Positions 6,498 through 55,204 of a stretch of 64,000 bases of DNA are shown here, one piece after another. Below the pieces are notes generated by a model. The model saw only the letters and a list, made by a program, of their open reading frames with translations. It ran no database searches and was not told the origin of the DNA. The stretch covers positions 1,639,275-1,703,274 of the forward strand of contig MU004234.1 of the NCBI GenBank assembly GCA_010405405.1, given 5' to 3'. The translations under genes were made by a program, and so were the position numbers. The stretch's first letter is position 1, and each line of letters opens with the position of its first letter. Origin of the DNA: Microthyrium microscopicum. Its lineage: Eukaryota.

Positions 6498-6752
6498 ATT
6501 CTTGTAATGAAACGATGAGCTAGACAATTGCTCTAAGGATGAAATGTCAATCTCATAAAGCTGTGCAAAATCAACCTCAGGCTCTCAGCTGCTCGAAGTC
6601 GCGATATTTGGAGGCGCTTGAGGCGTTTGTGGTCGAGGCCGCAGCGTACGGAAGCGCGTCGCAGCGCCCCCACAAGAAGGACCAAGCTGTCGAGTTCGAC
6701 ATAGGTATAGCATTGAACCCGCTACATCCCTCTGCTTTCAGTACAAATAACA

Positions 6753-8057
6753 ATGCACTTGAAACTCGCTGTCGTTGTCGCTACGCAAATCTGTGTTGTA
6801 TGGTGTCTGTCAGTCCCCACAAATCTCAGGATAGCTCGAGGCGACGTTACCCCTGAATCTGCCATTAACACCTCAACATCCCCTGGCCTGAAACATACCC
6901 AACCTTCCTCATCTTTATCCTCCTCATCCTCATCTCACTCGATATGGAAGCCTCTGTACCTGCCAGTCACTTCGTCCCAACCAGATCCCCTGGGCATTGC
7001 ACAAGTCAGTGGCTTCTATGGCCCAGGAGCATGGGCAGCATGGTTCATCACCGGCGTCGCATCTTGGCTCCGGATATTTCGAAGAACAAAGGACAAAGTC
7101 GACGTGAACACGGTGTTGTTCTTGCTTGGGACGAACTGGGCTGCAGTTGATATGCTTAAGAGCATCCACATGCTGGGGAATTTGCAGCCCAACGAGCCAG
7201 AATATCTTGTGAATGTCGAAAAGAGCATGGGTACTTATGGTGCTTCCTTCAATGTGGCATTCTGGGGGAGCATCCACATTATATTACAGGTTCCAGCCAC
7301 TTGGATACTGTTTGAAGATATGAAATCTCGTCGGAGGCGACGCATATTTATACTCGTTGTTGGAGCTTTGCTCCCGTTGATTGCTCTTACTGCAAATGGT
7401 TTCGGGCCCTCCCTTTACCAGATTATCGATTACTTTTACCTTTCATACCCGCAAGTTGGACTAGACTCAATGCCAGCCTTGTATTCCAAGGGAATGGCTT
7501 TGAAAACTCACCGATTCATGATGTTGCTAGGAAGTCATCTTGTGTTGTTATTCATTGTGCCGCTGTCATTGCTCACACTTTGGGAAGCTGCCATGATAGG
7601 GGAGTGGACGTGGGGATTGAAGATATGTCTACGAGCTATAGGTCTGTTGAACTTGGCCTTCTTCATCTTGATGCTTGCGGCCAGCTGGCTTGGTTTCTGG
7701 GCTTGCTATCCGTTTGCTTGCCTAGTTATGATTCAGGCCATAGTCGGACTCCGTTTCACCTATGGCATAGCGGCGTTCTGGGCGTTCAGCGTTATTATAT
7801 ACTGCCTGATTTATGTGCGTGAGGCCTACTTTCACTCTGGATCCCTGGCTTCGGAATCATGCTTCTTCATGCCATGCGCTTCACAGACGCTCTCCGACGA
7901 GGATCAACTGTTCGGCTTGTTTGCTGGTCTCACCACTTTTGCTGGATTCGAGATACTCCCACCTTTATGGGCACATTACAAAGTCCGCCACCAATTTGTT
8001 GAAGAGTGGGAAGAGAAGGCCCGGCGATTCAGGTTAAGACTCACACACCGAGACTAA
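6753..8057 (+). CDS. Hypothetical multi-pass membrane protein with signal peptide
   Basis: Intronless 434-aa ORF with a hydrophobic N-terminus, a Ser-rich linker and about 8-9 hydrophobic segments (e.g. SGFYGPGAWAAWFIT). No catalytic family recognised. Confidence 0.7.
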   Translation: MHLKLAVVVATQICVVWCLSVPTNLRIARGDVTPESAINTSTSPGLKHTQPSSSLSSSSSSHSIWKPLYLPVTSSQPDPLGIAQVSGFYGPGAWAAWFITGVASWLRIFRRTKDKVDVNTVLFLLGTNWAAVDMLKSIHMLGNLQPNEPEYLVNVEKSMGTYGASFNVAFWGSIHIILQVPATWILFEDMKSRRRRRIFILVVGALLPLIALTANGFGPSLYQIIDYFYLSYPQVGLDSMPALYSKGMALKTHRFMMLLGSHLVLLFIVPLSLLTLWEAAMIGEWTWGLKICLRAIGLLNLAFFILMLAASWLGFWACYPFACLVMIQAIVGLRFTYGIAAFWAFSVIIYCLIYVREAYFHSGSLASESCFFMPCASQTLSDEDQLFGLFAGLTTFAGFEILPPLWAHYKVRHQFVEEWEEKARRFRLRLTHRD

Positions 8058-18835: not shown

Positions 18836-20910
18836 TCACAGTCGTGGTCCTTCAACCTCAATCTCAGCAGCCAATATTCCTTCAACAACTTCCTCTCCAT
18901 CTTCAACTTCCGTTATCCACTTCACGCGCCCTCCCCTTTTAGCTCTGATCTCAACTTCCATCTTCATCTGGCGAACAACACACACTACATCGTCAACTTT
19001 GACCATGTCGCCTTCGTCTACGCATACTTCAACGAGCTTGCCTGGAAACGGTATGACAATGTGTCGAGGATTATTAGGATCGCCTCGCCTGTGCTGACAC
19101 GTCACCGCTGAAGCAGATGCTGTTGTACTCGACAGCTCTAGCTTGTACTTTTGCGGAGCCGAAGATGATGAGGATGCGAATGTGACTTCGGCCGTTAGCG
19201 CAGTTGGGAAATCATTTCGTAGGATCCGCGTGAGCTGTAGATGGTTTGTCGAGCTTGAGGCTTGACTTCTGTTCAACGGGATGAGATTTGCAGTGAAGGA
19301 ATCGCCTTTTCTGAAGATAGGAGCGCCCGCTGTGATGGCCGAAGTGGCACTTGTCGAACTGGATTCTTCCCGGCTCTCTATTGGCATGGCCAGATTCTGA
19401 GTTATGGTAGCTCCAAGCTCAAGCAGCTCCGCTTGCCGCGTTTCCAACCAAGTTGTATCGCAATCTCCAGCCGAGAAGTCTGGATGCGCTGCAATCCCTC
19501 GTAGTATCTCGAGATTTGTCTGGATGCCTTCTATTCTCGCCTCATTCAATGCTCGCCGCGCTTTCGCAACCACGATTGGCCAAGTTGGGCCAGTAACAAT
19601 GATCTTGGCCAACAAACTGTCAAATGAGCTTCCTATTGCTTGGCCAACTTCGAGCGCTGCGTCGACCCGGATACCATTCCCTCCTGGTAGCTTAAGAGCG
19701 GTGATCTTGCCCACGCTGAGACTCCAATTTTTGCGGACATCTTCAGCTGTGATACGAAATTGTACTGAATAATCGCTGGGCTCGAAGTTCAGACTGACCG
19801 TATCCAATGGTAGTCCGGATGCTGAGAGTGATGCTCCTTGAGATATTAGAAGTTGCGCACGCACGAGATCTATCCTGCATATCGACTCGGATATGGTGTG
19901 TTCTACTTGGAGGCGGGGGTTTATTTCCAAGAAGAAGAATTCTTGAGTCGTAGGGTTGGCTAGGAACTCGAATGTTCCCAGCGAGAAGTATTGGACCTGG
20001 GTTCTGTTTAGTAGTAATCTGCCCGCTGGATATACGAGCACCTTACTTTCTTGGCCATTGTGATAGCAGCCTGAATGATCTTTGCTATGAAAGCACAATC
20101 TGCGCCCACACAAGGTGCAATCTCGACGACTTTCTGGTATCGTCGCTGAATCGAACATTGACGCTCGAAAAGATGTATTACATCCGTCCCATCGCCGACA
20201 ATCTGTACCTCCACATGTAAACAGCCATCCACCGCCGCCTTCTCCGCAAACACGCTCTTTGAGACACTCTCTTCGATCGCCCGCTTTGCCATGCCCTCAA
20301 GCTCTGATTCTGATCTTACCAGTCGTATTCCGCGCCCTCCGCCGCCGTCGACAGCTTTTATCATCACAGGATACTCAACATCAGCAGCAAACCTACGCAG
20401 CGCGGCGACATCTGCCGTGGGTTCACCCAACGCAGCTAGAACAGGCACAGAACATTCTTCAGCCAGTTTCCGTGCGGCCAATTTATCTCCAGTCCGATTC
20501 AATAGCTCCCATCCTGGTCCTATCACCACCGCGCCTGCCTCTTCCCATACTCGGCGACTGAACTCGGCACTCTCGGATAAGAAGCCATAGCCTGGATGCA
20601 CGGCGTCAACTTTATGCTGCTTGATAATGTTGACGAGCGCGTCAATATCCAAGTAGGCTTCTGGACTAGGTAGCTCAACTGCTTCCGAGGCGCCATGAGT
20701 GTGTGCTGTATCTCCCCTGGAGTACAAAGCGATAGTAGGTAATGAGAGTTCGGCAGCGGCAGATATTATGCGCGCTGCAATTTCTCCTCTGTTAGCGACG
20801 CTTTTGACATGTTAGACAAGTGCTAAATTGGAGAATGGAAGATGAAAAGAATCATGAACTTACAGTAGACGGCTTATGGGACGAGTTAGTGGGCGGCCAT
20901 TAAGGGACAT
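18836..20910 (-). CDS. Biotin carboxylase + biotin-carboxyl carrier (alpha subunit of an acyl-CoA carboxylase), 3 exons
   Basis: LL|VANRGEIA (intron 20801-20863), HPGYGFLSE, KAVDGGGGRG, CSIQRRYQK and FLEINPRLQVEH motifs. C-terminal biotinyl domain with QMKME. Second intron at about 19998-20046. Confidence 0.9.
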
Positions 20911-21277
20911 GTTCGCGCGTGAATGGTTTACTTTATATCTCTCTAACTCATATAGAGAGTTGTTGCTGGTGCTTTTCTTCAATTCCAAGCTCTTCAATGA
21001 AATGATTAGAGACCGATTCTATATGCTCCACGAATGTGATGGCAAGAGCTCCCAGATTCTGAAGAGTTGAGAATCTACCACCTATTGAAGAAAAGCTACT
21101 GGTATACAATTATGAAGCTATCTTTAAGGCAATTACATTGATCGTCAGATCGTCCAATGTGTGGGGAAGCAGCCGAGGTACCCCATGCGAGCTCAACGTT
21201 TCGAGCTCTCCATCATCAACACCAACAGCATTACCGTTTTTCTTGATACTTGCAATTGATCATAAAAGATTCTCACT

Positions 21278-23249
21278 ATGCCTGACGACAGCAATGGTTC
21301 TCCGTCCGCTTCAAAATCTAAGGAGATCGCCTCCGAGTCACAATCTCAGTCCCCAGCTCCGCCTCCGTCAACCCCAGCTACTATCGAAGCTACAAACGCT
21401 GCAGAACCCTCTCAACTGACATCCACAATAAACGAACGCTTATCACAAGTCGCCTCCCATGTTTCTCCGTCGGCAAAACCCAACACCTCCCGACCGCGAC
21501 GCCGTTCGCGCAGGAAATCCTCCAGTGACGACCTGCCAGCCGATTATTCAGATATACTAAGCCATGTCGCCAAACTACGCGAAATTGCTGCGACACCAGA
21601 CCATAGTAATCGTGGATACCAACGGCAACTAGCCGCTGGCAAGCTATGGGTTAGAGAAAGGGTAGAGAAATTTGTGGATCCGGGCTCTTTCAAAGAGGTC
21701 GGAAGCGTATCTGGCACTGTGACATGGAAGAAGACTGGCGATGGCAGAGAAGAGCCAGTGGCGTTCATACCTAGCAATAATGTTCAAGGGTTTGGGAAGT
21801 TGAACGGCAGAACGATCGTCTTCACCGCGGACGACTTTTCCATACGAGCAGGACATGCTGATGGGAGCTTGGCGGCGAAGACGATGCATATGGAAGAGAT
21901 GAGTCTCAGTCTGAAGCTGCCCACTATCAAATTGGTAGACGGATCATCTGGTGGGGGGTCCGTGACAACTATCATATCAACCGGCTGGTCATATTTGCCA
22001 ACAGTCAGGACGTTTGTGACAGTTTCAAAGGCACTTAACGAAGGCATACCAAATCTGGGAGCTGTTCTTGGACCTGCAATTGGACTTGGAGCGGCACGAG
22101 TGACAGCGTGTCATTTCAGTGTCATGGCTGCAAATGTTGGGAGTCTTTTCAATGCTGGACCCGCTGTAGTTGCGGGATCAACATTTGAGGAAGGTTTGAC
22201 TTTGCAGGAACTCGGGGGTCCAGATATCCATTGCAGGAACGGAACGATTGACAACAAAGCACAAAATGAAGAAGAAGCCTTTGAACAGCTGCGTACAGTC
22301 CTCGGGTTTTTACCTAACCACGGCGGGGAGTTGCCCCCACAACTCCTCAACGACGATTCACCTACCCGAAAGTCTCCAAATCTACGCAGCATAATACCAC
22401 GACGTCGCGAGCGCATGTATGATGCCCGCAAAATCATCACCACCGTCACCGATACAGACTCATGGTTCGAGATTGGTGCATTATGGGGCCAGACTGCGAT
22501 TGTTGGTTTAGCAAGGCTGGGTGGATTTCCTATAGGAGTAATATCACTTGACCCTGAAGTCGGAGCTGGCGCTATTGATGCTTTAGGAAGCCAAAAGGTT
22601 ACGCGGCATCTCAAGTTCTGTGATATCTTCAACTTGCCCATCATACAGTTCATTGATTGTCCAGGTTATGCGATAGGCACAGTAGCTGAGCGCACTGCAA
22701 CAATGCGCCATGGAATAAACCTGGCCCTAGCATATCATGGGACCACCACTCCCATTGCTTCAATAATTACCAGGAGATGTTATGGTGTTGCTGGTGGTAT
22801 AATGGTTGGAAGCAGGTAAGAGTTGTCTCCATTATGCTTTCATCGATCTGATCGCCAAAATCTCGCGTGCCGGCCTTCCGAGCTATGTCATGGTTACTAA
22901 TAGCTCATAATATAGAGATCCACGATTTGTCGTAGCTTGGCCCTCTGGTGTTTGGGGATCGCTGCCCTTGGAGGGTGGCATTCAGGTCGGTCACAGTTAC
23001 GAGCTATCGCAGATCGAAAAGACCCGAGGCACTCAGGCGATGAAAGAGCGATATCGCGAGCTAGAAGAAGAATATACCAGACTCATGAATCCGGTGAGAA
23101 CAGCGAACAATTTCGGCGTAGAGGAGATAATAGATCCTGCAGAAACGAGGACGATATGCGCCGAATGGTTACGGCATATGTATAAAGTCTTGTTGCCGCA
23201 GAGAGTGATGGACCGAGCTGCTGGACGTATAAGTCCTGTATTCTATTAG
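21278..23249 (+). CDS. Carboxyltransferase (beta subunit of an acyl-CoA carboxylase), 2 exons
   Basis: GKLWVRERV, ADDFSIRAG, GPAIGLGAAR, LGGPDIHCRNG, LARLGG and FIDCPGY motifs. An intron at about 22816-22915 joins to …AWPSGVWGSLPLEGG…EEIIDPAETR. Confidence 0.9.
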
Positions 23250-40541: not shown

Positions 40542-41291
40542 TACGCTCAAGGAACTGGTCATAATTAGTTAAACATCGAATGTGTCTTTGACTCATTCCA
40601 ATTTAGATTTAGTCCATGATAACCAGCGGACGTCCGCAAATACGGTAGCCCGTGGATCCGCGTTGACCCTCAGGGAATATCGAAAACGACACCAATTGTC
40701 TTCCACAATTCATTCCCGCCGTGCGCTTCCATGATTATTGAGCGAGCCCATTTTCTTATGCAGCTTCCCCTCATCTCAACACCTGACGCGTATTCACGTG
40801 GCTACGCGAGATGCCAAGCATATTCGGGACAATTATTGTAGCGACTGAGGCCCGAATTTGGTCAGAGTTGAGTAATCAGGCTTCAAAATCCTCCCATTCT
40901 CGCTCTGTTACTGCATGGTTGCGGACCGGGATGCAGGCATAGGGCGCGTTATGTCGCGTCTAGCTGCGGTCCTTATGCAATCATGCCGCATTCTCTTCGT
41001 ACCAAGTCCAAATGTTTGGAATCGCTTCTTGAACAAGAAATACAGGCTTGCTCAATTGGGCGTTGCTTAGCTAATGACTAGATCCATTATCTGCTGTAGG
41101 TGATTATGACTCAATCAGAAATGCTAACACGAGGTAGGTAATACAGGTGTGCTATATCCTGCATCTTGCTGTTGGTGATCTGTATAAAGTTGAGTACAGT
41201 CACCTAGTACTTGAAGTTGACCCTACTCTCATCAACCATCCTTCTTACCAACCAAAAACTAAACATATCAGACCCCAAGCAAATAGCCAAC

Positions 41292-42065
41292 ATGTCTAAA
41301 GCCGCACAAAACAAGCTCGCCATCCTCCTCAGGAGCCTCCACAAACCTGGCGACCCAGTAATCATGGCCAACGTCTGGGACGCTGTCACCGCCGAAGCTC
41401 TCACCAAAGTCCCCGGTGTCAAAGCCGTCGCCACAGCATCCTATGCTATTGCAGCAGCTCGTGGCGTTGCGGACAACGACATGACATTCGAGCAAAACCT
41501 TGACGGCATCCGCTCAATTGCACCCAAAGTGGCCGCCGCAAACCTTCCACTCAGCGTAGATCTTCAAGACGGGTACGAAGATGTTGCCGCTTCCATCAAG
41601 GCTATCATCGAGCTTGGTGTCGTTGGCTGCAACCTTGAGGACTTCAACGACCGCACCAACTCACTTAGGCCAAAAGAGGAGGCCGTGGAGCGATTGAAGA
41701 TTGCCATGAAGGCGGCAAAGGAGGCAGGTGTGCCTGACTTCTGTATCAATGCACGCACTGATGTGGTGGTGCATGGCGGATCGATCGATGATGCGATTGA
41801 TCGGGCCCATGCATACCTGGATGCTGGTGCACATAATTCCTTTGTTTGGGGTGGTGGAGCACGCGGATTGAGGACTGAGGAGGTGGCAAGGTTGGCTGAG
41901 GCATTGGATGGGCGGTTGAATGTCATTAGGAGGTTGACGCCTGAGGGACTGACGCTGGGCGAGTTGAAGGAGATTGGAGTTGCGCGGATTAGTGTTGGTC
42001 CGACGCTACAGTTCAAGGCACTGGAGGCATTCAAGAAGGCGGCGCAGGATATGTTGGAGAAGTAA
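41292..42065 (+). CDS. PEP-mutase/isocitrate-lyase superfamily protein (not a true PEP mutase)
   Basis: ANVWDA, AVATASYA, LSVDLQDGY, GCNLED, INARTD and ARISVGP motifs. Lacks the EDKx5NS signature of phosphonate-forming PEP mutases. Confidence 0.85.
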   Translation: MSKAAQNKLAILLRSLHKPGDPVIMANVWDAVTAEALTKVPGVKAVATASYAIAAARGVADNDMTFEQNLDGIRSIAPKVAAANLPLSVDLQDGYEDVAASIKAIIELGVVGCNLEDFNDRTNSLRPKEEAVERLKIAMKAAKEAGVPDFCINARTDVVVHGGSIDDAIDRAHAYLDAGAHNSFVWGGGARGLRTEEVARLAEALDGRLNVIRRLTPEGLTLGELKEIGVARISVGPTLQFKALEAFKKAAQDMLEK

Positions 42066-42322
42066 GACAATCTTCTGCGAAGTATATGTAGCAGGATACA
42101 ATGAAAGTAGAATCTTCACTCTCTAGTTAACGAAGTTTTGTTTAAGCAGTGTGACTTTTGAAATGTACCATAAGTTCAATGATACGCGACGATAGTAAGT
42201 GGAAAACGGTACAAAAGAGATAGGATTCAAAGCTAACGTCATTAAATAGAATATCCATCGAGAGGCACTTCCCATCCTTCCCAAACTCCTGCTTTACAAA
42301 CCAAGAACAAATATTATGCCTA

Positions 42323-44010
42323 CTAGTGCACTCCATTTGTACCATTCTCCTCTACGGCGACAGTTGTGCCATTTGTACCATTTTCTTCTACGGCGGCAGC
42401 TGTTCCGTTCGTAGGCTTCTCGCCAGCGGCAATTGTGCCATCAGTTCCTGGTTTGGGAGCACCAGTGGCCTTATCCTTCATGAAACCACCTTCAATCAAG
42501 TTCATAGCAGTCTTGAACGGATCACTCTTTGACTTTGTGGCTGCTGGCAGACCGGCGGCAATGAACGCTTGCTCAAAGTCATGTTGGATATCCTCAAATT
42601 CCTCCAGACCGACACTGACGCGAATGAGATCAGGGGTGACACCTCCCTTGATCTTCTCCTCGTCGGGTAATTGTTGATGGGTAGTGACCCAAGGGTGAAT
42701 AATGAGTGTCTTTGCGTCACCAACGTTGGCCAAATGACTGCAGAGTTTCAGATTGTTGACTACATCGCGGACCTGATCGACGTTGCCGGCCTGGTTATAG
42801 GATTAGCAGATGCATTTCATGCATAGAAGAGGACACTTACCACGCCGAATGTGAGAACACCGCCTTGACCATTTGGCATGTTCTTTTGCCCGTACTCATA
42901 GTCAGGGTGTGACTTCAAGCTTGGATGAAGAACCCAGTTGACAGAAGGATGCGCTTCAAGCCACTCGGCAAGCTGCTTGGTACTGTCGCAATGGCGCTTG
43001 CCTCGAAGTGGCAGTGTTTCTAGACCTTGAAGGAAGAGCCAGGCATTGAAGGGACTCATACATGGGCCAAGATCGCGCATAGAATCCATGCGAAGCTTGG
43101 CTGCTAAAGCACCATAACCATATGTTTCCCAGAAACGCATGCCGTGGTAGCCATCAGCAGGCTCGGTGAATTCCGGGAATTTGCCAGAAGCAGACCAGTC
43201 AAAATGGCCACCATCGATTACAATACCGCCCATGCTGGTGCCGTGGCCTCCAATCCACTTGGTGCAGGAATGTGTGACAATGTCAGCACCGAGAGTGAGC
43301 GGTCTAGAGACGAAGCCACCCATTCCGAATGTGTTGTCGACGATCAGTGGGATGCCATGTTTGTGGCATACTTCTGCAATGGCTGCAATATCTGGAACAC
43401 TGTGCTTGGGGTTGGAGATGGTCTCGATGTACACTGCTCGAGTGTTCTCGTCAATGGTAGCGTCGATATCAGCTGGCTCGTTACCAACAACCCACTTGAC
43501 GTCTATCTTAAACTTCTTCATATACACTCTGAACTGATTGTAGGTGCCGCCGTATAGCCAGCTGGTGCTAACAAAGTTATGTCCTGGTTGGCAGCAGTTG
43601 GTGATGGCCATGAACTAAGAACATAATGGTTAGCTGTGCCTGTAAAGCATATGATAGTACCTACTTGAGCAGCATGACCAGAAGCAGTAGCTACAGCTCC
43701 AACACCTCCTTCAAGCATGGACATGCGTGTCTCAAAAACGTTATTGGTGGGATTGCCCATGCGTGTGTAAACATATCCTTCTTTGGACCAGGCGAATTTG
43801 CTGGCGCCATCTGCAGCGTCGGTGAAGTTATAGGCAGCGGTCTGATAGAGCGGAACTGCTCGCGATCCATTGACTGGATCTGGCTCTTGACCTCCATGGA
43901 GGGCGACTGTAGACCATGCTGGCGTCCTATATCAGATGATTAGATAAGCTTTTGAAATGAATGATGGAACCTTACTTGGAGACGTTGGCTAGGGAACCGG
44001 AAACTGTCAT
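42323..44010 (-). CDS. O-acetylhomoserine (thiol)-lyase / sulfhydrylase (Met17/CysD family PLP gamma-replacement enzyme), 4 exons
   Basis: [10 protein letters not shown]…[22 protein letters not shown] and IVDNTFG motifs; PLP lysine in [32 protein letters not shown] and IRVSVGLE. Introns at about 43927-43975, 43616-43664 and 42791-42840. Confidence 0.9.
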
Positions 44011-44308
44011 ATTTTCTGATATGAATGCTTAAATAGTAGATAAGGTGAATTGCTAAAGGGAGAGTAGCTTCAAGTTGAATGAGTTTCAAGTCAAAAGTGG
44101 TACTTTTTGAGGGAAGATATAAGTGATGTGATCGTGTAGTTTGAAGTAGACTGAGCTAATTATCGACCTGATTGCAGATACCATCTCGTTATAGATATAT
44201 AAGTATCTGATTTGTATCTTAGTCTTCAAAAGATGCTCGATTCAGTATTCGGCTTGCTCAATCAGGTTTCATGATGTTGCGGCATGTCAACGCGGCCAGG
44301 GATCTATC

Positions 44309-44350
44309 AAATCCCGAATCCATCCCACACCTCAACAACCAGACACCGAG
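44309..44350. promoter_or_regulatory. Putative cluster TF sites upstream of the OAH lyase
   Basis: AAATCCCGA at 44309-44317 and AGACACCGAG at 44341-44350. Nearby TGCGGCA at 44278-44284 and CGGGATT at 44409-44415. Confidence 0.55.
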
Positions 44351-44862
44351 ATGCCTGTTAGCTCTAATGCGGCCCCATAAGCTCTGCTTCATCTATGAAC
44401 CCGAGATCCGGGATTGTGGTAGGCGTAGTGCGTTCTTCTAATGCGTTGTACGATGCTTGTATGCTCCTGGGAGACCGGAAGTGCTGACAGGCTACCCTTT
44501 GAGGTAGTTTGAGACAGTTGTCCCAATTAGAGGCATCAACAGGAAGACTGTGGTGAGGCATGAGCATTAGATACCAAGCTTGTGCGGCTAGCTAATAGGT
44601 TCGAACTCAAGATCTTCCCCATTGTGAGATTATGCATGATAGGACCACTTGCTGGAAGATTGGTCTACAATAATTTTCCATCTCATGTTTTCTGATTTGC
44701 CACTACGACAATCGGTATTATTACATTCTATAAGCTATCGAGTATTTTGTTCCAAGCATTGGTATCTATTGGCTACATAATCCTTCAAGCCAAACCAGTC
44801 AGCCGCTCAACACTATTCTACTTGTTTTGATGTAGTCACACTCCATGCAATTGGGATCAACA

Positions 44863-47369
44863 TTAATTCCCGAAGTGGGTCTGAATGAACTCTTGAATTT
44901 GATCTAAACATTGTCAGTGAATTCATAGACTTGCAAATCCAGTACCTTTACATACCTCGCATGCCTGCTATGGCTTCGGAAGCTATCGAGTAGTTCTCCA
45001 GAGTGCTGGCAATAGAGACAAGAGCTCGGTGCATTTTGATGAACAGAGTTTGTACATAAATATCATTAGAAGCATTTTTCTCTGCCAATGTCTTTTGCCG
45101 CAGCATTAGAAGAGCATATCCGGCTTGCATGGCACAACAAGACATGGAAGGCATCGTTCGAGGCATAGGCTTGTTCGAGATCAGAAATGGATATGGCAAG
45201 GTCTCAAATGATTGGACAATATTGAGCGCTGACTTGAGGCATATCTTCTGGGAAGCTCGACTGCTGAAAGGGAAGAGCTCAATCAAATCACCGGTGCTCC
45301 GGAAGTCTTGTCCTGATGAAGCAACTGTGGGCTCACTTGGTGTTAGTGGTAGGTCCAAATCCATGTTAATATTCATGGATATCATGGATGTGCTGCAGCA
45401 TGCCATGGAAGACATGGAGGGTGTGCGGTCTCGAAAATCCAAAGGAGACGAAATCGGTTTCAGGTCGCAGTATTTCTTGCTGAAAATGGGGTGATCGAAG
45501 AAGGCACAAAATCTGTGCAGTTTTATTCTCGCACTGGATTCATCTCGTTAGTTCTGGGAAACAAAATATAGCATTCACATACCTATTTAGTTTCACACGA
45601 GCCATGCTTTTGAGCGTCTCAGCAACAATTTCTTCATCCGAGTCAACAGGGTTGAAGCTGGGCATGCATTGGGCATATTTGTCCGCCTGGGCGACGAGAG
45701 GCGCCATTTCTTGCTCAAGTTGTTGCATACGATCACATATTATGTCAAGATTTTCGTTCCTCTCAAGTGTCTTGTTTAGATCGACCACAAATAGCGTGGC
45801 AGATAGTATTGTTTGTTGAGCTTGAATGAAGAAGGGCCATGCCTATGATTTGTCAAGAAGATTTCCATGACTGAGCCACAGGATACTTACGTCTATATCG
45901 GAGTTCGTAGAAGGATATAGAGTCGTAAACGACGGATCGTAAAGTGATATGATCGGTGGCTGTTCAGTAAAGTCAGGCTAGCGCCAGGCAAGTCTTCAGA
46001 AGGCAACTTACACAACTGCTATAAATTGAAGCCTGACAGACACATATATACTGTACACATGTTAGAGTTTGGAGTAGTGGAAGAACGTCTTTTGGTAACG
46101 TACAGTCATCCACCAAGCCCTTCTTCTTGACTCCTCGAACTGGTCAAATTCTCCTCCTCTGGAGTGTAGGGACAAATTCATTGCGGCAACTAAAGCTTGG
46201 CCTGCACGGCTGCGCATGCGGTTGATGTTGCCTCTTTGCGAATACTCGTATATGCTGAGAAGATCCAGTGCTATAATGCTTTCTAGCTCTACCGGAACCA
46301 TGGGATGAAATGACGCTCGCATACTACGATCATGTGAGTCTGTAAGAGTATCACTAGGATCAACTGAAGAACCAGGAAGTTCAGACTCGATTTCTATGCT
46401 TTCAAGAGCAGATTGGACCAGAAAGTAGGAATATTTTCTTCGAAACAGCACCGCTTCTTCATTTGCCCAATCTGCATCCTGCTCATGTGGAATTAAGGCC
46501 AGAATAGCCGCAATGACGAGGCTTAAGGGTGACGAGGGATGATACTCGTCATCACCTGCTTCCAAGTCGTCCATGGAATAGGCAATAGCATTGTCACAAA
46601 GTGAGGCTGATAGGCTAGGTGGAGGTAAAATTGGAAAGTACTGGTGTATGAATATGTAATAGCCGTTCAATCTAAACTGAAATTAGCCAGCCGGCTCATT
46701 ACTAGATAGGCTGCTTCTTTGAGAATGGTCTCTTACAAATCTGAATCGCTTCCATATGCTCGAACAATGGGTGTGGCTGGCAATGAGGGTTCTTCCTCGT
46801 ATAAAGATCCGGAGCCTGGAGTCGTGGAGGGTGGTGTCGGATAGTTGAAGATGCTGTCAAAGATCATGTCGCTATCCTGATCCAATTCTTGATGACCTTG
46901 GGTTTGCGCCAGCCCTGCGCCAGGGTTCACCATCGATAAGACCTCGCCAGAAAAGTGTATTGAGTTAGGAAGATCTGTGTATCGTGTTGGATCAGTCAAA
47001 GGGAGTGGCGAGCAAAGAATCGAATCCTGATCCGCAGGTTGCGTGATTGATGATTTTGATGATAGGGCTTTAGACGCAGCTCGCCGTGATACTCGTGGAC
47101 CACCTCTTTTGCTAGGAACGTATATGCATTCTCTACTTTTCTTTACACACTGTCCCATTGTCAGCCGAATTTCAAGGAGATCTCGCTTTCGACTTTGACT
47201 CACACTAGTGCAGTCTCTCTTCCCATCACATCGCGTTCTAGAAGCACGACTAGAAGCATAGCATGTCAGCCTGGGTACTTCGTTCTTCGATTTCCTTGTC
47301 ATGAACTCACCAAGCTGTACATGCTGCTTTGACTGGAGGTTGAGCGAGCTTTTTTCTTGTCGTATGCAT
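44863..47369 (-). CDS. Zn(II)2Cys6 transcription factor with fungal-specific middle homology region, multi-exon
   Basis: The spliced N-terminus MHTTRKKLAQPPVKAACTAC|RASRTRCDGKRDCTS|CVKKSRECIYVPSKRGGPR contains all six Cys. Downstream YYIFIHQYFPILP and EESRRRAWWMT motifs. Last exon DQIQEFIQTHFGN* ends at 44863. Confidence 0.9.
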
Positions 47370-47383
47370 TTTGCTAACGGTGT

Positions 47384-47636
47384 TCGGGATTCAATTACGA
47401 GATAATAAACCTAGAATGCCGCATTGTAGGGGGCTTGTATCTCTATTTAGTCAAGGGCACACCGCGTGGCGATACATTGTGAAGGAAGAAGTGATAAGGC
47501 TACATATGTGTGCGGCATCTGCGGCATCTCAAGGGATACGCTATCCAGGTATTTCTGACAGGCCTTATCGCACATCTGCCGCAAGCACCCCACAGATAAA
47601 TGTAATTGTGCTCATGTTGAAGGTAGGAAATCCCGG
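47384..47636. promoter_or_regulatory. Putative autoregulatory sites upstream of the Zn2Cys6 gene
   Basis: TCGGGATT at 47384-47391 and AAATCCCGG at 47628-47636. Four TGCCGCA/TGCGGCA copies at 47417, 47511, 47520 and 47577. Confidence 0.55.
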
Positions 47637-48010
47637 ATTCCTGGTTAGAACAAGCTGTTGTGGCTGTCAAACAGCTTTTCTACTTGTTGAGTCTGGGCTT
47701 CAGACTATTGGGATACGGAACGAGCGGGAACTGGTTGTACATGCTTTTTACTTTCTGTTTTATCAGCACAAAGGGACAACGGAAGAAATGGAACAGGTTG
47801 GTTGTCATTCGAGCACAAGAGGCACCCATGGCATGGACAATAGACGATAAGTTAGTGGATAGTAGGATAGAGATTGAAGTTGGAGAATGTTTATATACCC
47901 CTATTATGATGGTCCGTGCACATATTGAGCTTTTCCCTCCTCCATTTCTTATTCCACTGCTTCCACCACTACAACAACCCTTTATCCAAAGATATCCATA
48001 TCCATCTCGC

Positions 48011-49281
48011 TCATCCTTGAAACTGGACGTTCACTGCAGGCTTGGTGTTCACAGTCAAGGAGCTGCTGTATGTCAGAAATGTGCTTCTTTACCAACGCGC
48101 CGAAGAACTACTCACAAAACATCGGGACGAGAATAACTGCCCACAGGATCAAAGTCGAGCTGCAGGATCGTTAGCGGGAGCAGCATAGATTTTACATTTA
48201 CATACTCGTGCCTCGACGATGTCTGATAGCTTCAGTGTCGCGTATACGATCTCTTCTTTATCCCACACGGGCTCAGCGATGAATGTACCCAAAGGCCCTA
48301 TGATGCAAGAACCACCATGCGATAGAATATCGTTGGGCTCCCATCGAGAACCATCTGGCTTGCGATCATAGTGACCTTCCGAGAATGGCGGGTAGTCTTT
48401 TGGAAAGTCCGATACCTTTGCAAACTGATTGACGTTCATCACAAAACATCGTCCTTCTTTCGCGATATGCTTCATTGTTGCTGTCCATTCTGGAAGATCG
48501 TCTGCGTTTGGAGCAATGTATATTCTGGTAACAAGAGTCAGCTGTAATACAAGAGAAGATCACGTCATATACTCTATTCCTTGTTGATAGAGAGCCATTC
48601 TTGCTGCGGGCATGTAGTTTTCCCAGCAGATGAGGCCACCAATCTTGCCGACCTCAGTTTGTGCCACTGTCAGGCCATCTCCAGCCCCGCGTCCCCAAAC
48701 AAGCCTTTCTGCGGCGGTTGGTATCAACTTCATATATAGTAAGTAGCTTCGAATATATTGGAACTGGAGCTCACTACCTTGCGATGGCGTGACAGAATCG
48801 CGCCCTCTCTGGATAAGAGTAAGGAAGTACAGTACAGCGTTCCTTGATCTTTCTCAATGATACCGACCGATAGGAAGATCTCATTGCTTCTGGCTACCTC
48901 TGACAGGAATTCCGTCTCGCTTGATGGTATGGCAACAGCGGATTCGTAGTATCGGGCATACCACTTTCGTCCTGCACACTTATCAGCTCCGCAAATAGGT
49001 TTAGATAAGGAGAGAATAGCCAACCACGAGGCTCACGAGCACCAATGGTTGCATCAAATGCATATCGCCAAGGATAAGCCGTTAGAAATCCTTCCCTATT
49101 GGAAGAATTAGTGAGCCGCACCAATCAAGCACAGAAACTCGTACGGAAATGCAACAATCTGGGCTCCATTGGTCGCAGCTTCAGTGGCTAATGCCGATAA
49201 TTTCTTCAAAGTATTTGGCAAGTCGAATGAAACTGGGGCTGCTTGAACAGCAGCAACCTTCACTACTTTTTGGCTTGACAT
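48011..49281 (-). CDS. Nitrilase (carbon-nitrogen hydrolase branch 1, CWEN type), multi-exon
   Basis: KVAAVQAAP start. The Glu-Lys-Cys triad lies in FP|EGF, HRK|LIPTAAERLVWG and GGLICWENYMP. C-terminal DFDPVGSYSRPDVF. Confidence 0.92.
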
Positions 49282-49717
49282 GCTTGAAACTGCCCTTTGG
49301 ATGACTGACTAAGGATTCCGAGGTGGCCTGAATTTGGGAAAAGTGGTTTTTACGACTATCGAACAGACCGGGAAGAATGTTTATGAAGCGATCGTCTTTC
49401 CACTTGCCGCATATCCTGCCATTCTGACACCCTCGCGGCTCATAAGTTTGAGGCTCGGTGTCTGACCCAAAAGCAAATCCCGACTACGGCTGATCTTCCC
49501 ATGGCTGCACAAATGCCTGGAAACGCATCTGGGATCGAAAACGGAGTAATTCTTAAGCTTAGGACGACAATGTGTTTTGCCGAGTGTGTTGGGTAAATAT
49601 CAAAAGTTCAAATTACTGCCACAACGGTGACGTTTCACGCTTCCACATTACTACTTGCCCACCATGACACATTATAGTCATGCTGTCAGCACCACGCTCA
49701 AGCAGAACCAAAAGACA
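49282..49717. promoter_or_regulatory. Bidirectional promoter, nitrilase / homoserine O-acetyltransferase
   Basis: Head-to-head starts about 435 bp apart. Contains TGCCGCA at 49405, CTCGGTGTCT at 49454-49463 and AAATCCCGA at 49475-49483. Confidence 0.65.
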
Positions 49718-51106
49718 ATGCACTTGACTTTGGAAAATACCGAAGCTACACTACTGGATACCCATCTGGAATCACAGAATCTTTATTCCGAGTTCATTCG
49801 CGATCAGAATTTCGCGGTGATACCTTCTTTCATACTTGAATCTGGAGAAGAGCTTCTCAACTGTCAAATTGCTTACAAAACTTGGGGACAGCTTAGCGCT
49901 CGAAAGGACAACGTTCTAGTTGTATGCCATGCTCTGACTGGCAGCAGTGACTTGGTAGATTGGTGGCGACCACTTTTTGGACCAGGGAAAGCACTTGACC
50001 CAACAAGATATTTTATCTTTTCTGCCAACACTCTAGGCTCTCCATACGGTAGTAGCTCTGCTCTGACTCTGGATCCAAGAACTAAAGCTCCATACGGATC
50101 AAACTTCCCAAATACTACCATTAGAGATGACGTGCGGTATGCCACCTCTTCATGCCTCATACCGATACAGTCACTGACACAATATAGAGCACAGAAGCTT
50201 GTACTTGACGCGCTTGGCATAATCTCTGTTGCAGCTGCTGTGGGAGGCTCAATGGGAGGCATGCATGCCCTTGAGTGGACTCTTTGCACGCCACGGAACT
50301 ACGTTAAGAGTCTTGTCGCTGTCGCTACCTCGCTTTATCACAGTGCATGGGGCATTGCGTGGGCAGAAACACAACGGCAAGCCATATACATGGACCCCGT
50401 GTTCGATGAGGGAAACTACGAGCAAAATCCCATGGGCCAACCAGCAGCTGGCATGACAGCCGCCAGAATGATAGCCATGTTGACATACCGGTCGTCTGAG
50501 AGCTTCGTCGCCCGCTTTGGTCGCAAAGAAAATACAACTGCCAGACAGGGTGTCAAAGTCCGTAACATCGCGCCTCATCTGTCAAGGCCTGTGTCGGCAA
50601 ACAAGAATATTGACATGAGACCTCTTTCGAGAAACTCCGATCCTTATTTTTCTGTTCAAGGTTATCTGGATTACCAAGGATCGAAGTTTCTGTCTCGATT
50701 TGATGCCAACTGCTATCTTCACCTGCTTAAGAAAATGGATTCTCACGATATCTGCCGTGGTCGAACGACCAATAAGAACGGCATTAGTCACTCAGACGAT
50801 GTCATCAAAGCTGTTTGTTCAAGGGCGCCGTTTGGCGCATTGGTGGTGGGTGTCAGCTCAGATGTCTTATTTCCTGTGGCAGAGCAGAAACATATTGTAG
50901 ATGTTTTGCCGGAAGCCAAGCTCCGCATTCTGCAGTCGAGAAATGGTCATGATGGCTTCTTGTTGGAGTTTGAAGAGTTGAATCGCTTGATTATAGAGCA
51001 TCTCCAAGGAAAACATCCCGAGATGTACAAAGGGGCACCAACGCCTTATCAAGTTCCTAGTCTTGTATATCAACGTGCGCCAAGCATGGTTGGTGAAATG
51101 GAATGA
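49718..51106 (+). CDS. Homoserine O-acetyltransferase (Met2/MetE family), 2 exons
   Basis: VCHALTGS, NTLGSPYGSSS, TTIRDDVR, nucleophile GGSMGG, ARMIAMLTYRS, YLDYQG, RFDANCY, SDVLFP and GHDGFLLE motifs. Stop-free 51-nt intron at 50137-50187. A start at 49664 is also possible. Confidence 0.92.
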   Translation: MHLTLENTEATLLDTHLESQNLYSEFIRDQNFAVIPSFILESGEELLNCQIAYKTWGQLSARKDNVLVVCHALTGSSDLVDWWRPLFGPGKALDPTRYFIFSANTLGSPYGSSSALTLDPRTKAPYGSNFPNTTIRDDVRYATSSCLIPIQSLTQYRAQKLVLDALGIISVAAAVGGSMGGMHALEWTLCTPRNYVKSLVAVATSLYHSAWGIAWAETQRQAIYMDPVFDEGNYEQNPMGQPAAGMTAARMIAMLTYRSSESFVARFGRKENTTARQGVKVRNIAPHLSRPVSANKNIDMRPLSRNSDPYFSVQGYLDYQGSKFLSRFDANCYLHLLKKMDSHDICRGRTTNKNGISHSDDVIKAVCSRAPFGALVVGVSSDVLFPVAEQKHIVDVLPEAKLRILQSRNGHDGFLLEFEELNRLIIEHLQGKHPEMYKGAPTPYQVPSLVYQRAPSMVGEME

Positions 51107-51447
51107 TGATCATTGTATATTAGAACATTTTATAGATTTCAGTTGATTCATTGTACAAAGACAGAGGCTTTTCCGTAGTGTCCTTGTGTCCTTGTATGTC
51201 CCAGGTTATCATTTGTCCACGAGAAATAAATTAGAGAAACGATTTGGCCCCAAAGTACATCATAGTAGGCATCGAAATGATCGCTAGCATGTCAAGAAGA
51301 CGAATTTCAACCCAAGAATTTTTTCCTTCATAGACTTCAACTCAAGGTGGTTAAGGTAGTACATACCATAGACTTCTTATGTACGTTTCTTCAAAAGAGG
51401 CAAAGATATCTTCAAATCAAGATATAAATTTGAATATAACAATATAT

Positions 51448-53307
51448 CTAGTATAACCAAGGCCCCTTAATAAAATTATTTTCCATCTCCGATTTCGACG
51501 GAATCTTCAGCACATTCTCATGAATAACCGACGTAGCCAACAATGCCTGATCTTTTCGAACAACGACACTGCAATTTCATTAGTTTCCTCAATGCAAAGA
51601 CAGCGGATAGACACTTACGATATATTGATCTCACTGGCTCCCTGACTGATCATATATATGTTGATCTTTGCCTCCGCCAACGCATCAAAAATCTCACTCG
51701 ATACACCGACCATGTTCTTCATCTTATGTCCTACGACGGAGATGATCGCCCTCTCGTCCGAGACATTCACAGTTCCAAACGTCTCCAGATCCCCGATCAG
51801 CCGCTGCAAGCGCTCTGGGCTGTCGATATTCTCCAATGCAACGGATATGCTTCGTTCGCTGCTTGTTACCAAGTCGATGTTGAGTTTGTGTTTGGTAAAC
51901 TGCTCGAGCACGCTGACGAGAAAGATGCTGAATTTGCGCTTCTGGTTGCATAGCACGTTTAGAACAGTGATCGGCTCTTTTGCTGTCACCGCTGTAGGCA
52001 CGCGACGGTTTTGGTGCTTTCCGTGGTAGCCGTTACTGAGCAGGAAGGCTTGACTTGGTGGTGAGGCTGGACGGGTCGGTGCGGGCGAGAGCTCAGGAGA
52101 TGAAGAGGTACTGCGAGTGGGATAGATTCGTGTGCCGGCACCGCTAGGATTGAAAACGTTCTTCAGTTGTAAGCGTATGCCAGCGTGGCGAATTTGATCG
52201 ACTGCAAGAGGGTGGACGACCTGAAGTATAGTTAGATGAGAGTCTCATAACCAGCTATAGGCAGTAAATCGTACCTCACTGCCGTAATATGTAAGTTCTG
52301 CAGCTTCCTCAACCGTCACTGCAGGCAGCAAACGCGCAGAAGGTATCTTCCTCGGGTCCGACGTGTATATCCCGTCCACTTCCTTCCAAATCTGAAGTTC
52401 ATGAGCTCGAAGACCGAGAGCACATAGTGCGGCACAGAAGTCTGAGTAGCCGCGACCAACTGCTTTCATCAAGGAATCAGGCATGATGCCAAAGAAGCCT
52501 ATATCTACTTAGCAACAAGCACACGGATCAAAGAAGCCACACGGACCTGTAAGAACCGGAAGACGTCCATCACATTGCTCAATCTTTAACGCAATCTGTT
52601 GAGCCAGAAGAGGGTAGACTTCAGATCCTAATTGTTCTATAGCATATCTTTGATTGCTGACAGAAGAGCCGAAGGCTTCTTCCACGAGGTTGTCAAGGAA
52701 TACCGCTTGTGCCGGTATACCCTACCAGGTTATCAGTAACCGGATGAAGACCAAAGTATATCAAAGAGAACTAACCTTGACTTGAAGTGCCGCAGCAACA
52801 ATGATACAAGCAAGTCTTTCTCCAAGCGCAAGTATTCGATCCTTCGCTCGAGGCGAGAGCTCTCCAACTGTCTACCATTTGTTAGCATTCGAACGAATTA
52901 GCATCCACAAACTTGCTCACCTGCGCTGCGATCATAAAGGCTCGTATCTGCTCGCATTCCTTGGAAACTGTCAGACAAGCGGCTTGTAGTGTTTCCTTCG
53001 CGCTGGCTTCAGTCGACTTTGAAGCAAGATTTTCGAGTATAGAAAAATGATGATCCTTGAGGACATCAAAGACATTGTTCATTTGAATCTGTGATGCTAA
53101 AGATGTAGATGAGATGAGCTCGATGCATTGTAATAGCAAACTTGTTGTTCCAGAGTTCTTCGTTTTGCCAGAGATGGCTGAACAGACGACCGCTACGTTG
53201 TTTCGTGCCCAGAATGATGGTATGATTTCACCACAGATGCTGTCTAGTAGCTTTCCTAAGCTTGTTCCTCCATACTTTTGAACAATCCAATCTTCTTGAC
53301 GATGCAT
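51448..53307 (-). CDS. Aspartate kinase (Hom3 family, divergent ACT region), multi-exon
   Basis: WIVQKYGGTSLGK, VVCSAIS, LGERLA, GRGYSD, WKEVDGIYTSDPR, EAAELTYYGSE|VVHP and MISQGASEINIS motifs. Last exon …KGPWLY* ends at 51448. Confidence 0.92.
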
Positions 53308-53456: not shown

Positions 53457-53511
53457 TGCCGCACTGGCGGCACACAAGCAACAACTCGGGGTTTGCTGGG
53501 CTTCGGGATTT
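53457..53511. promoter_or_regulatory. Putative cluster TF sites upstream of aspartate kinase
   Basis: TGCCGCA at 53457-53463 and TCGGGATTT at 53503-53511 (reverse complement of AAATCCCGA). Confidence 0.55.
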
Positions 53512-53862: not shown

Positions 53863-54891
53863 CTACGTCTTAGGCCCGTTCTCTACTGAACCAGCCTCTG
53901 GTACGAGTTGAGCAAGTACTTCTTCTAGTTTACTCTTGGCTAAGTCGAAATGACTGCCATCGTACTCTGTGAGAATACTGTGAGGTAGTCGTTCGTTCAG
54001 GTAACGGATTTGCTGCACCGGCGCGTTTTTGTCCTGAGTTCCGTGCCATATTTGCACTTTATCATAATCAACATCTTCGAAGTCGAAGCCCCAGTCCAAA
54101 TCAGATAGTAGCTCAGCTTCCTGTGTGGTCCCTCTTGCACCTTGCGCAAATGCTTCAAAAATAATGCGGAATATAAGTTCTCTCCGCTCAGCGACAGACT
54201 CTTCGGCTGACACCGTCTTGTCTCCAATTTCAGGCTCTCCCCTTCTTAGCTGCGACTCTTTCTTCTCATCCTTGAGCAGCCCATCAAGATAACGCGTCAC
54301 GACATCTGTCTGCGCCGTCCTCTTGAGGAAATTCACCATTGCGTCTGCAACCATTGTGAATCCAGCAGGCCACGACCGTACCGCCATAGCAGTCATATGG
54401 CCCAGCCGTGGTACACCCGCCGTCCCCGCGCGCCATGGCCCTGCACTTGCAAAGAGTCCCACCGCCGACATCATCTCGTGAGGTAGTACGCGCGCACAAG
54501 CCAGCGCATACGGCCCTCCACCTGACCCACCAAGCACAGCAAAGCGCTCGATGTTGACATGGTGTGCAAACTCGAAGACATCAGCCGGCCAATCGAGTAT
54601 TTTGCGGTTAGGCTGAAATGTGCTGAGGCCGAAGCCTGGACGGTCAAGAGCGAAGAGCCGGATGTTGCGCCGATGGGCTAGCTTCGTGATGGACCCAGCT
54701 TCGAGCCGTGAGGAGGGGAAGCCGTGGAAGAACAGGAGTGGGTAGCCGGTGGGTGAGCCATACTCTGCGAAGCCGAGAGTACGGCCATCGGGGAGTGTGA
54801 GGGTCTGGTTCTCGAGATTTGGTTTCGACGTGTGGATGAAGCGCGGTGGAGATGAGGATAGCGAGCGGGTGAGTGTCGTAGGGATTTTCAT
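53863..54891 (-). CDS. Alpha/beta-hydrolase fold protein
   Basis: LPDGRTLGFAEYG, FHGFPSSR and DRPGFGLS motifs; nucleophile GGSGGGP; WHGTQD; GSHF. The Ser/Thr/Arg-rich N-terminus resembles a mitochondrial presequence. Confidence 0.85.
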   Translation of the reverse strand: MKIPTTLTRSLSSSPPRFIHTSKPNLENQTLTLPDGRTLGFAEYGSPTGYPLLFFHGFPSSRLEAGSITKLAHRRNIRLFALDRPGFGLSTFQPNRKILDWPADVFEFAHHVNIERFAVLGGSGGGPYALACARVLPHEMMSAVGLFASAGPWRAGTAGVPRLGHMTAMAVRSWPAGFTMVADAMVNFLKRTAQTDVVTRYLDGLLKDEKKESQLRRGEPEIGDKTVSAEESVAERRELIFRIIFEAFAQGARGTTQEAELLSDLDWGFDFEDVDYDKVQIWHGTQDKNAPVQQIRYLNERLPHSILTEYDGSHFDLAKSKLEEVLAQLVPEAGSVENGPKT

Positions 54892-55204
54892 GGCGCCGGT
54901 AGAACCAAGAACAATTAAAGCATTTTGAGCGATCAATGCTGACAGCTGTATTGCTTACAACTTTTCCTCCAGAATGTGAAGCTTTTCTTAGAGTTGGAGT
55001 TGTTGATGTTTGTTGTTCATGAAGAAGGAGAAAGAGAGCAAAAAGCGTGGCTACAGGGATATCCCTGTCTTTAGCTGGGACCCCTGCCACTTGACGCATT
55101 CAAGGGCGAATTTCGAGAGTTATTGGAACTTTTTGACATCCAATCGCCCGACTTCGCTTCATAACAATCACCATCAAATTTCGTACTATCGACTTGATCG
55201 TGAG

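Follow-up and report, generated by a model that had tools for sequence, protein, structure and literature searches.

A conserved five-gene cluster of Pezizomycotina linking a NIT4-type nitrilase to O-acetylhomoserine enzymes: a candidate route of cyanide assimilation

Results

A stretch of 64,000 nucleotides from contig MU004234.1 of Microthyrium microscopicum (hereafter the window) was analyzed. An earlier note, made from the sequence alone, had described five contiguous genes between positions 42323 and 53307, encoding an O-acetylhomoserine sulfhydrylase (OAHS), a Zn2Cys6 regulator (TF), a nitrilase, a homoserine O-acetyltransferase (HAT) and an aspartate kinase (AK), and had predicted that they assimilate cyanide through O-acetylhomoserine (OAH). 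Exon models were drawn from three sources: deposited proteins, an intron-poor orthologous locus designated L002, and joints seen in RNA contigs. With these models all five genes were found intact where the note had placed them, every frame is open after splicing, and the end coordinates that it gave coincide exactly with the OAHS stop and the AK start. Table 1 lists the features of the locus and of its surroundings.

Table 1. Positions of the genes, domains, promoter elements and other features in the window
Feature	Position	Strand	Remarks
OAHS, Met17-like, pyridoxal phosphate (PLP) gamma-replacement enzyme	44010->42323	-	4 exons, 512 aa
TF, Zn2Cys6 regulator	47369->44863	-	9 exons, 690 aa
Nitrilase, branch 1, plant NIT4 type	49281->48014	-	7 exons, 323 aa
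HAT, MetX/Met2 type	49718->51103	+	2 exons, 1 intron, 445 aa
AK	53307->51448	-	6 exons, 534 aa
Pfam Cys_Met_Meta_PP	42323-43931	-	OAHS, three open reading frame (ORF) pieces
Pfam Fungal_trans	46062-46682	-	TF, ORF piece
Pfam CN_hydrolase	48149-49032	-	nitrilase, three ORF pieces
Pfam Abhydrolase_1	49631-51106	+	HAT
Pfam AA_kinase and ACT	51615-52508	-	AK
Bidirectional promoter, nitrilase/HAT	49282..49717		between start codons 49281 (-) and 49718 (+)
TCGGGATT	44310..44317	-	upstream of OAHS
TCGGGATT	47384..47391	+	15 bp upstream of TF start codon
TCGGGATT	49476-49483		in nitrilase/HAT bidirectional promoter
TCGGGATT	53503..53510	+	upstream of AK
Low-complexity C-terminal tail of OAHS	42326-42540	-	~70 aa
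RNA contig, introns retained	48111-48738		covers part of nitrilase
RNA contig, introns retained	48796-50135		covers part of nitrilase, continuous with spliced HAT transcript
RNA joint, 59 nt, GT..AG	44552-44610	+	between OAHS start and TF stop
RNA joint, GT..AG	42195-42249	+	PEP-mutase-family gene
Octamer TGCGGCAT	40983		~225 bp upstream of PEP-mutase-family gene
Phosphoenolpyruvate (PEP)-mutase-family gene	41208-42250	+	Pfam PF13714, E 7e-67; convergent with OAHS
Alpha/beta-hydrolase gene	53863-54954	-	directly past AK promoter
Biotin carboxylase with biotinyl domain (-) and carboxyltransferase (+)	18836-22819	-/+	divergent pair

The spliced nitrilase and HAT are letter-for-letter equal to two deposited proteins of M. 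microscopicum (Dothideomycetes), P0001 and P0104, respectively. The best match of the nitrilase among solved structures is A. thaliana NIT4 (6i00) with 294 bits, followed by a cyanide dihydratase at 170 bits; the solved cyanide hydratase scored 121 bits. This supports the parallel with NIT4 that the earlier note had drawn, this beta-cyanoalanine nitrilase being by far the closest solved relative. The tetrad E47, K134, E141 and C168 aligns with E76, K163, E170 and C197 of NIT4, and the catalytic residues are invariant in alignment A1. The positions that bear on NIT4 specificity are the lid arginine R95 with its partner D317, L169 and S224, and R95 and D317 are kept in enzymes that accept beta-cyanoalanine (PMC6637149). 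These residues were mapped onto the window nitrilase through its NIT4 alignment. R66 and D294 align with the lid arginine and its partner; the arginine is found in 77 of the 78 fungal-clade sequences having a residue there and the aspartate in 83 of 92. At the other two positions the window enzyme has A140 and D195 in place of L169 and S224. Position 140 is Ala in 76 of 91 close fungal relatives and Val, Gly, Ser or Thr in the rest, never Leu or Met, position 195 is Asp in 91 of 92, and both are mixed among 80 prokaryotic relatives. Since A140 and D195 differ from their NIT4 counterparts, the window enzyme is a relative of NIT4 rather than a strict NIT4. One alignment and one paper, taken together, suggest that the pocket is closed and short and takes a small nitrile with a carboxylate group, which would be related, but not identical, to beta-cyanoalanine.

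The best solved match of OAHS is yeast Met17 (8ovh), with 319 bits, and FUB7 reached 296 bits. Its PLP-binding lysine motif aligns with that of yeast Met17. The orthologue at L002, which is 74% identical to the window protein, passes TIGR01326 (596 bits; cutoff 495). A search for OAHS relatives, filtered by length, returned about 30 proteins at 66-87% identity; the next matches, at 56-62%, were enzymes of basidiomycetes and Kickxellomycotina. The 512-aa protein of the window itself was not in this list, and the C-terminal tail probably hid most OAHS proteins of the cluster type from the length-filtered search. In the window protein the tail continues past the point reached by the alignments with Trametes MET17 and Pfam, and the L002 orthologue ends in a tail too, though its sequence is different.

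HAT passes the MetX family NF001209 of NCBIfam (351.9 bits; cutoff 331) and falls under the cutoff of TIGR01392 (410; cutoff 500). Its serine and histidine motifs align with those of CefG (2vat). Homoserine is the predicted acceptor, and serine would be the alternative. The window exons of AK encode the Pfam domains AA_kinase and ACT_9, and the L002 orthologue passes TIGR00657 (285 bits; cutoff 209). A truncation of AK was considered and rejected: the in-frame stop after the ACT domain, near the 3' end, sits inside an RNA-confirmed intron of 50 nt. In TF, the Zn2Cys6 motif C-x2-C-x6-C-x5-C-x2-C-x6-C is complete once two RNA-confirmed introns are removed, and the spliced frame is open for 690 codons. 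The Fungal_trans match in the window piece is below the cutoff (20.1 bits vs 23), and that of the Cladophialophora orthologue is above it (28 bits).

Contigs assembled from one public run, labelled only 'RNA?', skip predicted introns of OAHS (two), TF (eight), HAT (one) and AK (three). The run is therefore RNA, and the transcripts of these four genes are spliced in the way that the models predict. The nitrilase is covered by two RNA contigs in which its introns are retained, one of them continuous with the spliced HAT transcript. These may represent a long 5' leader of HAT antisense to the nitrilase, unspliced pre-mRNA or carried-over DNA. The 59-nt joint between OAHS and TF has its GT..AG on the plus strand, both genes being on the minus strand, and could come from an unannotated plus-strand transcript or from an assembly that merged sense and antisense RNA.

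The nitrilase and HAT start codons are divergent and 436 bp apart, so the two genes have a bidirectional promoter in common, as had been claimed. The earlier note had also described common motifs in all promoters. Part of this stood: TCGGGATT has six copies in the window, four of which fall one in each of the four cluster promoter regions, but some 8-mer was likewise common to all four segments in 45 of 1000 sets of four equal-sized segments drawn at random from the window. The sequence TCGGGAT(T) occurs in the AK-OAHS intergenic region of two other loci, L026 and L029, and upstream of TF and OAHS in a third, L007, which lends weak support to a common regulatory site. Another octamer, TGCGGCAT, is found in three cluster promoters and also upstream of the neighbouring PEP-mutase-family gene.

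Linkage of these genes recurs in other fungi. For 34 of the 120 best HAT relatives, a count that includes the window pair, a contig of equal size in that species carries a nitrilase relative; among these pairs are small contigs of Colletotrichum sojae (18.7 kb), Melanomma (49.9 kb) and Sporothrix curviconia (53.6 kb). The gene or accession numbers of nitrilase and HAT are consecutive in all seven species where both are visible (Microthyrium, Penicillium canariense, C. sojae, Pycnora, Thermoascus thermophilus, Scytalidium and Rasamsonia emersonii). In five species (Hymenoscyphus albidus, Halenospora, Tricladium, Rasamsonia and T. thermophilus) OAHS and the nitrilase are 1-10 gene numbers apart, and in Aulographum and Colletotrichum sp. 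SAR11_59 equal contig sizes put AK on the same contig as the nitrilase. Adjacency and orientation are given directly by four merged gene models, which join nitrilase and TF in Cladophialophora psammophila and in Grosmannia clavigera, AK and OAHS in Thermoascus crustaceus, and HAT, AK and OAHS in Cudoniella acicularis.

In addition, 79 metagenome loci with an OAHS relative were scanned by tblastn for the cluster genes. L002 has all five in an order different from that of the window, namely TF(-), nitrilase(-), HAT(+), AK(+) and OAHS(+). Four genes (TF, OAHS, nitrilase and HAT) are present at L007, TF and OAHS at L019, and divergent AK and OAHS at L026 and L029. The divergent nitrilase-HAT pair was found in three of the three loci with both genes (window, L002 and L007). 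Because the genes flanking the cluster differ among these three loci, the unit that has been kept is the five genes, with AK dispensable in some versions. The cluster spans at least five classes of Pezizomycotina, Dothideomycetes, Sordariomycetes, Eurotiomycetes, Leotiomycetes and Candelariomycetes, with lineages looked up for three species. The linkage of the five genes is beyond chance, and they form a conserved, rearranged cluster. A nitrilase not linked in other genomes had been named beforehand as a finding that would speak against the cluster, and the recurrence across species speaks in its favour. Paraphoma chrysanthemicola has nitrilase-HAT pairs on two contigs (1,384,901 and 1,458,942 bp) and so carries two copies of at least the core pair. 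A bacterial metagenome contig, L011, has two tandem metY-metX pairs at 1510-7767, whose alignment statistics against the window queries match and are identical for HAT and for the last OAHS piece.

The relationships of HAT, AK and OAHS were also compared. The best HAT match outside M. microscopicum is 61% identical, and the rest are at 45-55%. The 120 best matches consist of cluster-type ascomycete carriers and basidiomycete MET2 proteins, 18 of them named as such, and no recognizable housekeeping ascomycete MET2 is among them. The many other ascomycetes with sequenced genomes, all of which must have a MET2, are absent from these matches. A FastTree phylogeny of these 120 proteins with the L002 and Cudoniella sequences, rooted with six bacterial MetX proteins, placed the ascomycetes in one group of 101 tips that includes all 36 linked sequences and no basidiomycete. 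The basidiomycetes are grouped apart (21 tips, of which three are unnamed; support 0.976). The best AK representatives are two cluster-linked kinases (Aulographum and Colletotrichum sp. SAR11_59) followed by unnamed ones; the named matches after the linked pair are basidiomycete kinases (Melampsora and Atractiella) at 46-47%. Next comes a 512-aa Xylariales kinase, which in Hypoxylon crocopeplum and Daldinia caldariorum is on a different contig from the nitrilase. Between cluster versions the identity is 42-50% for AK, 48-63% for HAT and 74-78% for OAHS. The nearest outside relatives of HAT, of OAHS and, among named matches, of AK are basidiomycete (for OAHS also Kickxellomycotina) and not ascomycete, an affinity that could reflect an old duplication or a transfer. 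HAT, AK and OAHS therefore look like accessory copies in their distribution and divergence, and the comparisons support their belonging to patchily distributed clades rather than to the universal ascomycete housekeeping set.

No polyketide synthase (PKS) or nonribosomal peptide synthetase (NRPS) domain was found in the window when Pfam was run on 20 ORFs and on the other 18 long ORFs, and five further ORFs in the gaps inside the cluster had no Pfam match. The flanks are ordinary or unrelated to the cluster, with a Hobbit-family gene, a Kelch protein and the PEP-mutase-family gene on one side and the alpha/beta-hydrolase and a trifunctional tryptophan gene on the other. The PEP-mutase-like protein scored well under the cutoffs of the curated models for PEP mutase proper and methylisocitrate lyase, and an RNA joint suggests an extra intron in its gene, whose 3' end would overlap that of OAHS. 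The alpha/beta-hydrolase has no informative curated family. Both genes, the PEP-mutase-family gene taken as 41208-42065, were considered as core members and rejected: neither matched any of the 79 metagenome loci at E<=1e-8, nor, at E<=1e-3, any of ten re-examined loci including L002, L007 and L019. Farther away, the divergent carboxylase pair is arranged like the two subunits of an acyl-CoA carboxylase, for example methylcrotonyl-CoA carboxylase.

Discussion

We tentatively propose, as a reading that falls only slightly short of probable, that the locus is an accessory five-gene cluster under its own Zn2Cys6 regulator that turns cyanide into glutamate or glutamine by way of 2-amino-4-cyanobutanoate. 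For such a route we infer what each enzyme acts on, which nucleophile enters, what is produced and what induces the cluster. AK and HAT would raise the supply of OAH, with the two dehydrogenases that act between them coming from primary metabolism. The Met17-like PLP enzyme would swap the acetate of OAH for cyanide to give 2-amino-4-cyanobutanoate, and the NIT4-like nitrilase would hydrolyze this nitrile to glutamate and ammonia, to glutamine, or to both. Cyanide would thereby be detoxified and both its carbon and its nitrogen recovered. The conserved set has no enzyme able to make another nucleophile, and the OAH module is accompanied only by the nitrilase. The cyanide route is the only reading that places the PLP enzyme and the nitrilase as consecutive steps, and it is the most economical one.

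Both predicted steps have precedents. The Bacillus stearothermophilus OAH sulfhydrylase mentioned in the earlier note was traced to Omura et al. 2003, where it is described as a gamma-cyano-alpha-aminobutyrate synthase, forming this compound as the note had stated. Fungal NIT4 homologues prefer beta-cyano-L-alanine (PMC7503981), and the residues at positions 140 and 195 of the window nitrilase fit a related but not identical small amino-acid nitrile. The predicted intermediate is one that E. coli methionyl-tRNA synthetase accepts (PMC13320846). Being a methionine analogue that this enzyme takes, it may call for a hydrolase tied to the OAH-forming gene by one promoter. A bolder variant would make the cyano amino acid itself a deployed antimetabolite and the nitrilase the self-protection of its producer.

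Several observations weigh against the cyanide route. OAHS looks ordinary, a near-canonical Met17 that is 57% identical to Trametes MET17, and its sequence has no feature that indicates a preference for cyanide. Four loci (L003, L004, L036 and L038) carry an OAHS of the same clade without the other four genes in the flanks examined, and L007 has no AK in the 21 kb examined. Fungal serine acetyltransferases belong to the same family as HAT. At 80 prokaryotic loci whose nitrilase is 44-52% identical, no match to OAHS, HAT or AK was found (E<=1e-10, flanks of up to 10 kb per side), so the pairing has not arisen independently there. As to regulation, the sharing of TCGGGATT is only modestly above its random control, and TCGGGAT(T) is absent from the promoters of L002. 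Finally, the route would be costly compared with cyanide hydratase.

The same genes could serve another gamma-substituted amino acid, the PLP enzyme joining OAH not to cyanide but to another nucleophile, such as one already bearing a nitrile, and the nitrilase maturing or detoxifying the product. Such a cluster would follow the logic of FUB3, FUB5 and FUB7, where the same trio of AK, HAT and OAH lyase serves the formation of a carbon-carbon bond (PMC6738028); FUB7 is a strong structural match to OAHS, and the UniRef name of the Cudoniella kinase is 'FUB3'. We nevertheless regard this as an unlikely, if serious, alternative: no gene that could make the nucleophile (PKS, NRPS-like or oxidase) is conserved in the window, L002 or L007, the PLP enzyme is nearer to Met17 than to FUB7, and the nitrilase keeps the closed-lid Arg-Asp pair, which limits substrate length in NIT4. 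Thiocyanate or another soft nucleophile would lead to a gamma-thiocyanato amino acid that the nitrilase cleaves to homocysteine, CO2 and ammonia. General chemistry would allow it, as the family takes various soft nucleophiles and an organic thiocyanate has a carbon-nitrogen triple bond. It is supported by no result of the analysis, we know of no nitrilase of this type acting on organic thiocyanates, and we consider it very improbable.

Linear salvage for sulfur assimilation would use all four enzymes on one path from beta-cyanoalanine to homocysteine. On that path the nitrilase would act on plant beta-cyanoalanine to free aspartate or asparagine (or on other nitriles to free ammonia), and AK, HAT and a true sulfhydrylase would lead on to homocysteine and methionine. 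The near-canonical sulfhydrylase would be at home there, and beta-cyano-L-alanine is the best substrate of the characterized fungal NIT4 homologues (PMC7503981). Aspartate is abundant, though, and a dedicated, regulated supply of it from nitriles would be of little obvious value; two of the three positions that bear on NIT4 specificity are consistently different in the fungal clade, and nitrilase and HAT, whose pairing is the closest and best conserved, stand four steps apart on this path. We find linear salvage distinctly unlikely. An arrangement of ordinary housekeeping HOM3, MET2 and MET17 that came to lie beside a nitrilase by chance deserves hardly any credence: many genera show the linkage, with gene orders and flanks that vary, the best non-self HAT match and the AK and HAT identities between cluster versions are low, and no housekeeping MET2 of ascomycetes is recognizable among the 120 best HAT matches.

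If the cyanide route is true, the cluster would give fungi a third way of dealing with cyanide, in addition to cyanide hydratase and an undefined aminonitrile route, and it would be present in many Pezizomycotina. It would give a function to a nitrilase clade that so far consists of 'hundreds of hypothetical homologues' in ascomycetes, and a genetic basis to cyanide assimilation in fungi living on cyanogenic plants and litter. Fixing hydrogen cyanide (HCN) on an activated amino acid and then opening the nitrile would have been invented a second time, independently, and the enzymes could be used to make labelled glutamate or the methionine analogue cyanohomoalanine. Even with another nucleophile, this is a compact, widely conserved five-gene cluster with its own regulator and no product assigned so far, whose function is directly testable by enzyme assay, labelling and gene deletion.

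Comparison with known systems

The fusaric acid cluster of Fusarium also groups an AK (FUB3), a HAT (FUB5) and an OAH (thiol)-lyase homologue (FUB7) with Zn2Cys6 regulators (PMC6738028). In the passages available it has a PKS (FUB1), an NRPS-like protein (FUB8), dehydrogenases and a transporter and has no nitrilase. None of those further components is in the window, and no PKS or NRPS-like domain was found in the window ORFs or in the L002 and L007 flanks. That fungi recruit this very trio of AK, HAT and lyase for feeding a gamma-replacement is shown by the FUB cluster.

Other fungal systems resemble parts of the proposed route. Cyanide hydratase is likewise an answer of ascomycetes to cyanide from the nitrilase superfamily, but it is a single enzyme that converts HCN to formamide without an amino-acid carrier. 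In a snow-mould basidiomycete (Strobel 1966, 1967), HCN is converted to glutamate via 4-amino-4-cyanobutyrate, which is opened by a nitrile-hydrolyzing activity. According to PMC6928751, this compound is an alpha-aminonitrile for which an aldehyde, ammonia and HCN are the starting materials, the carbon of cyanide becomes C1 of glutamate, and the enzymes were never identified. NitTv1 and NitAb (Rucka et al. 2020) are fungal NIT4 homologues whose best substrate is an amino-acid nitrile, and hundreds of uncharacterized homologues are reported from Pezizomycotina (PMC7503981). The window nitrilase resembles the layout of NitTv1 and NIT4 and appears to have no counterpart of the extra loop of NitAb, as judged by comparing the spacing of E47 and K134 with the published numbering rather than by alignment. 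The available text of PMC7503981 does not include 'homoserine', 'glutam' or '2-amino-4-cyanobutanoate', and its passages give no gene context. A search of the full-text literature, with most subscription journals outside its scope, found no published account of this cluster or of a nitrilase-HAT linkage in fungi.

The OAH sulfhydrylase of Bacillus stearothermophilus is of the same enzyme family as OAHS and carries out the reaction proposed here, in a bacterium. To our knowledge, neither a linked nitrilase nor linked supply genes have been described for it. The plant pathway of beta-cyanoalanine synthase and NIT4 likewise has a PLP enzyme that adds HCN to an activated amino acid, and a nitrilase of the NIT4 type that forms an acidic amino acid or its amide. 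It differs from the cluster in that the PLP enzyme is of the cysteine-synthase family, whereas that of the cluster is of the gamma family (Met17/MetY). Moreover, the predicted acceptor in the cluster is OAH, which would make the nitrile one carbon longer and the product glutamate or glutamine rather than aspartate or asparagine, and the cluster genes are grouped with precursor-supply genes and a regulator. The cluster would thus follow the logic of the beta-cyanoalanine pathway of plants, shifted to the gamma series and assembled into a fungal gene cluster.

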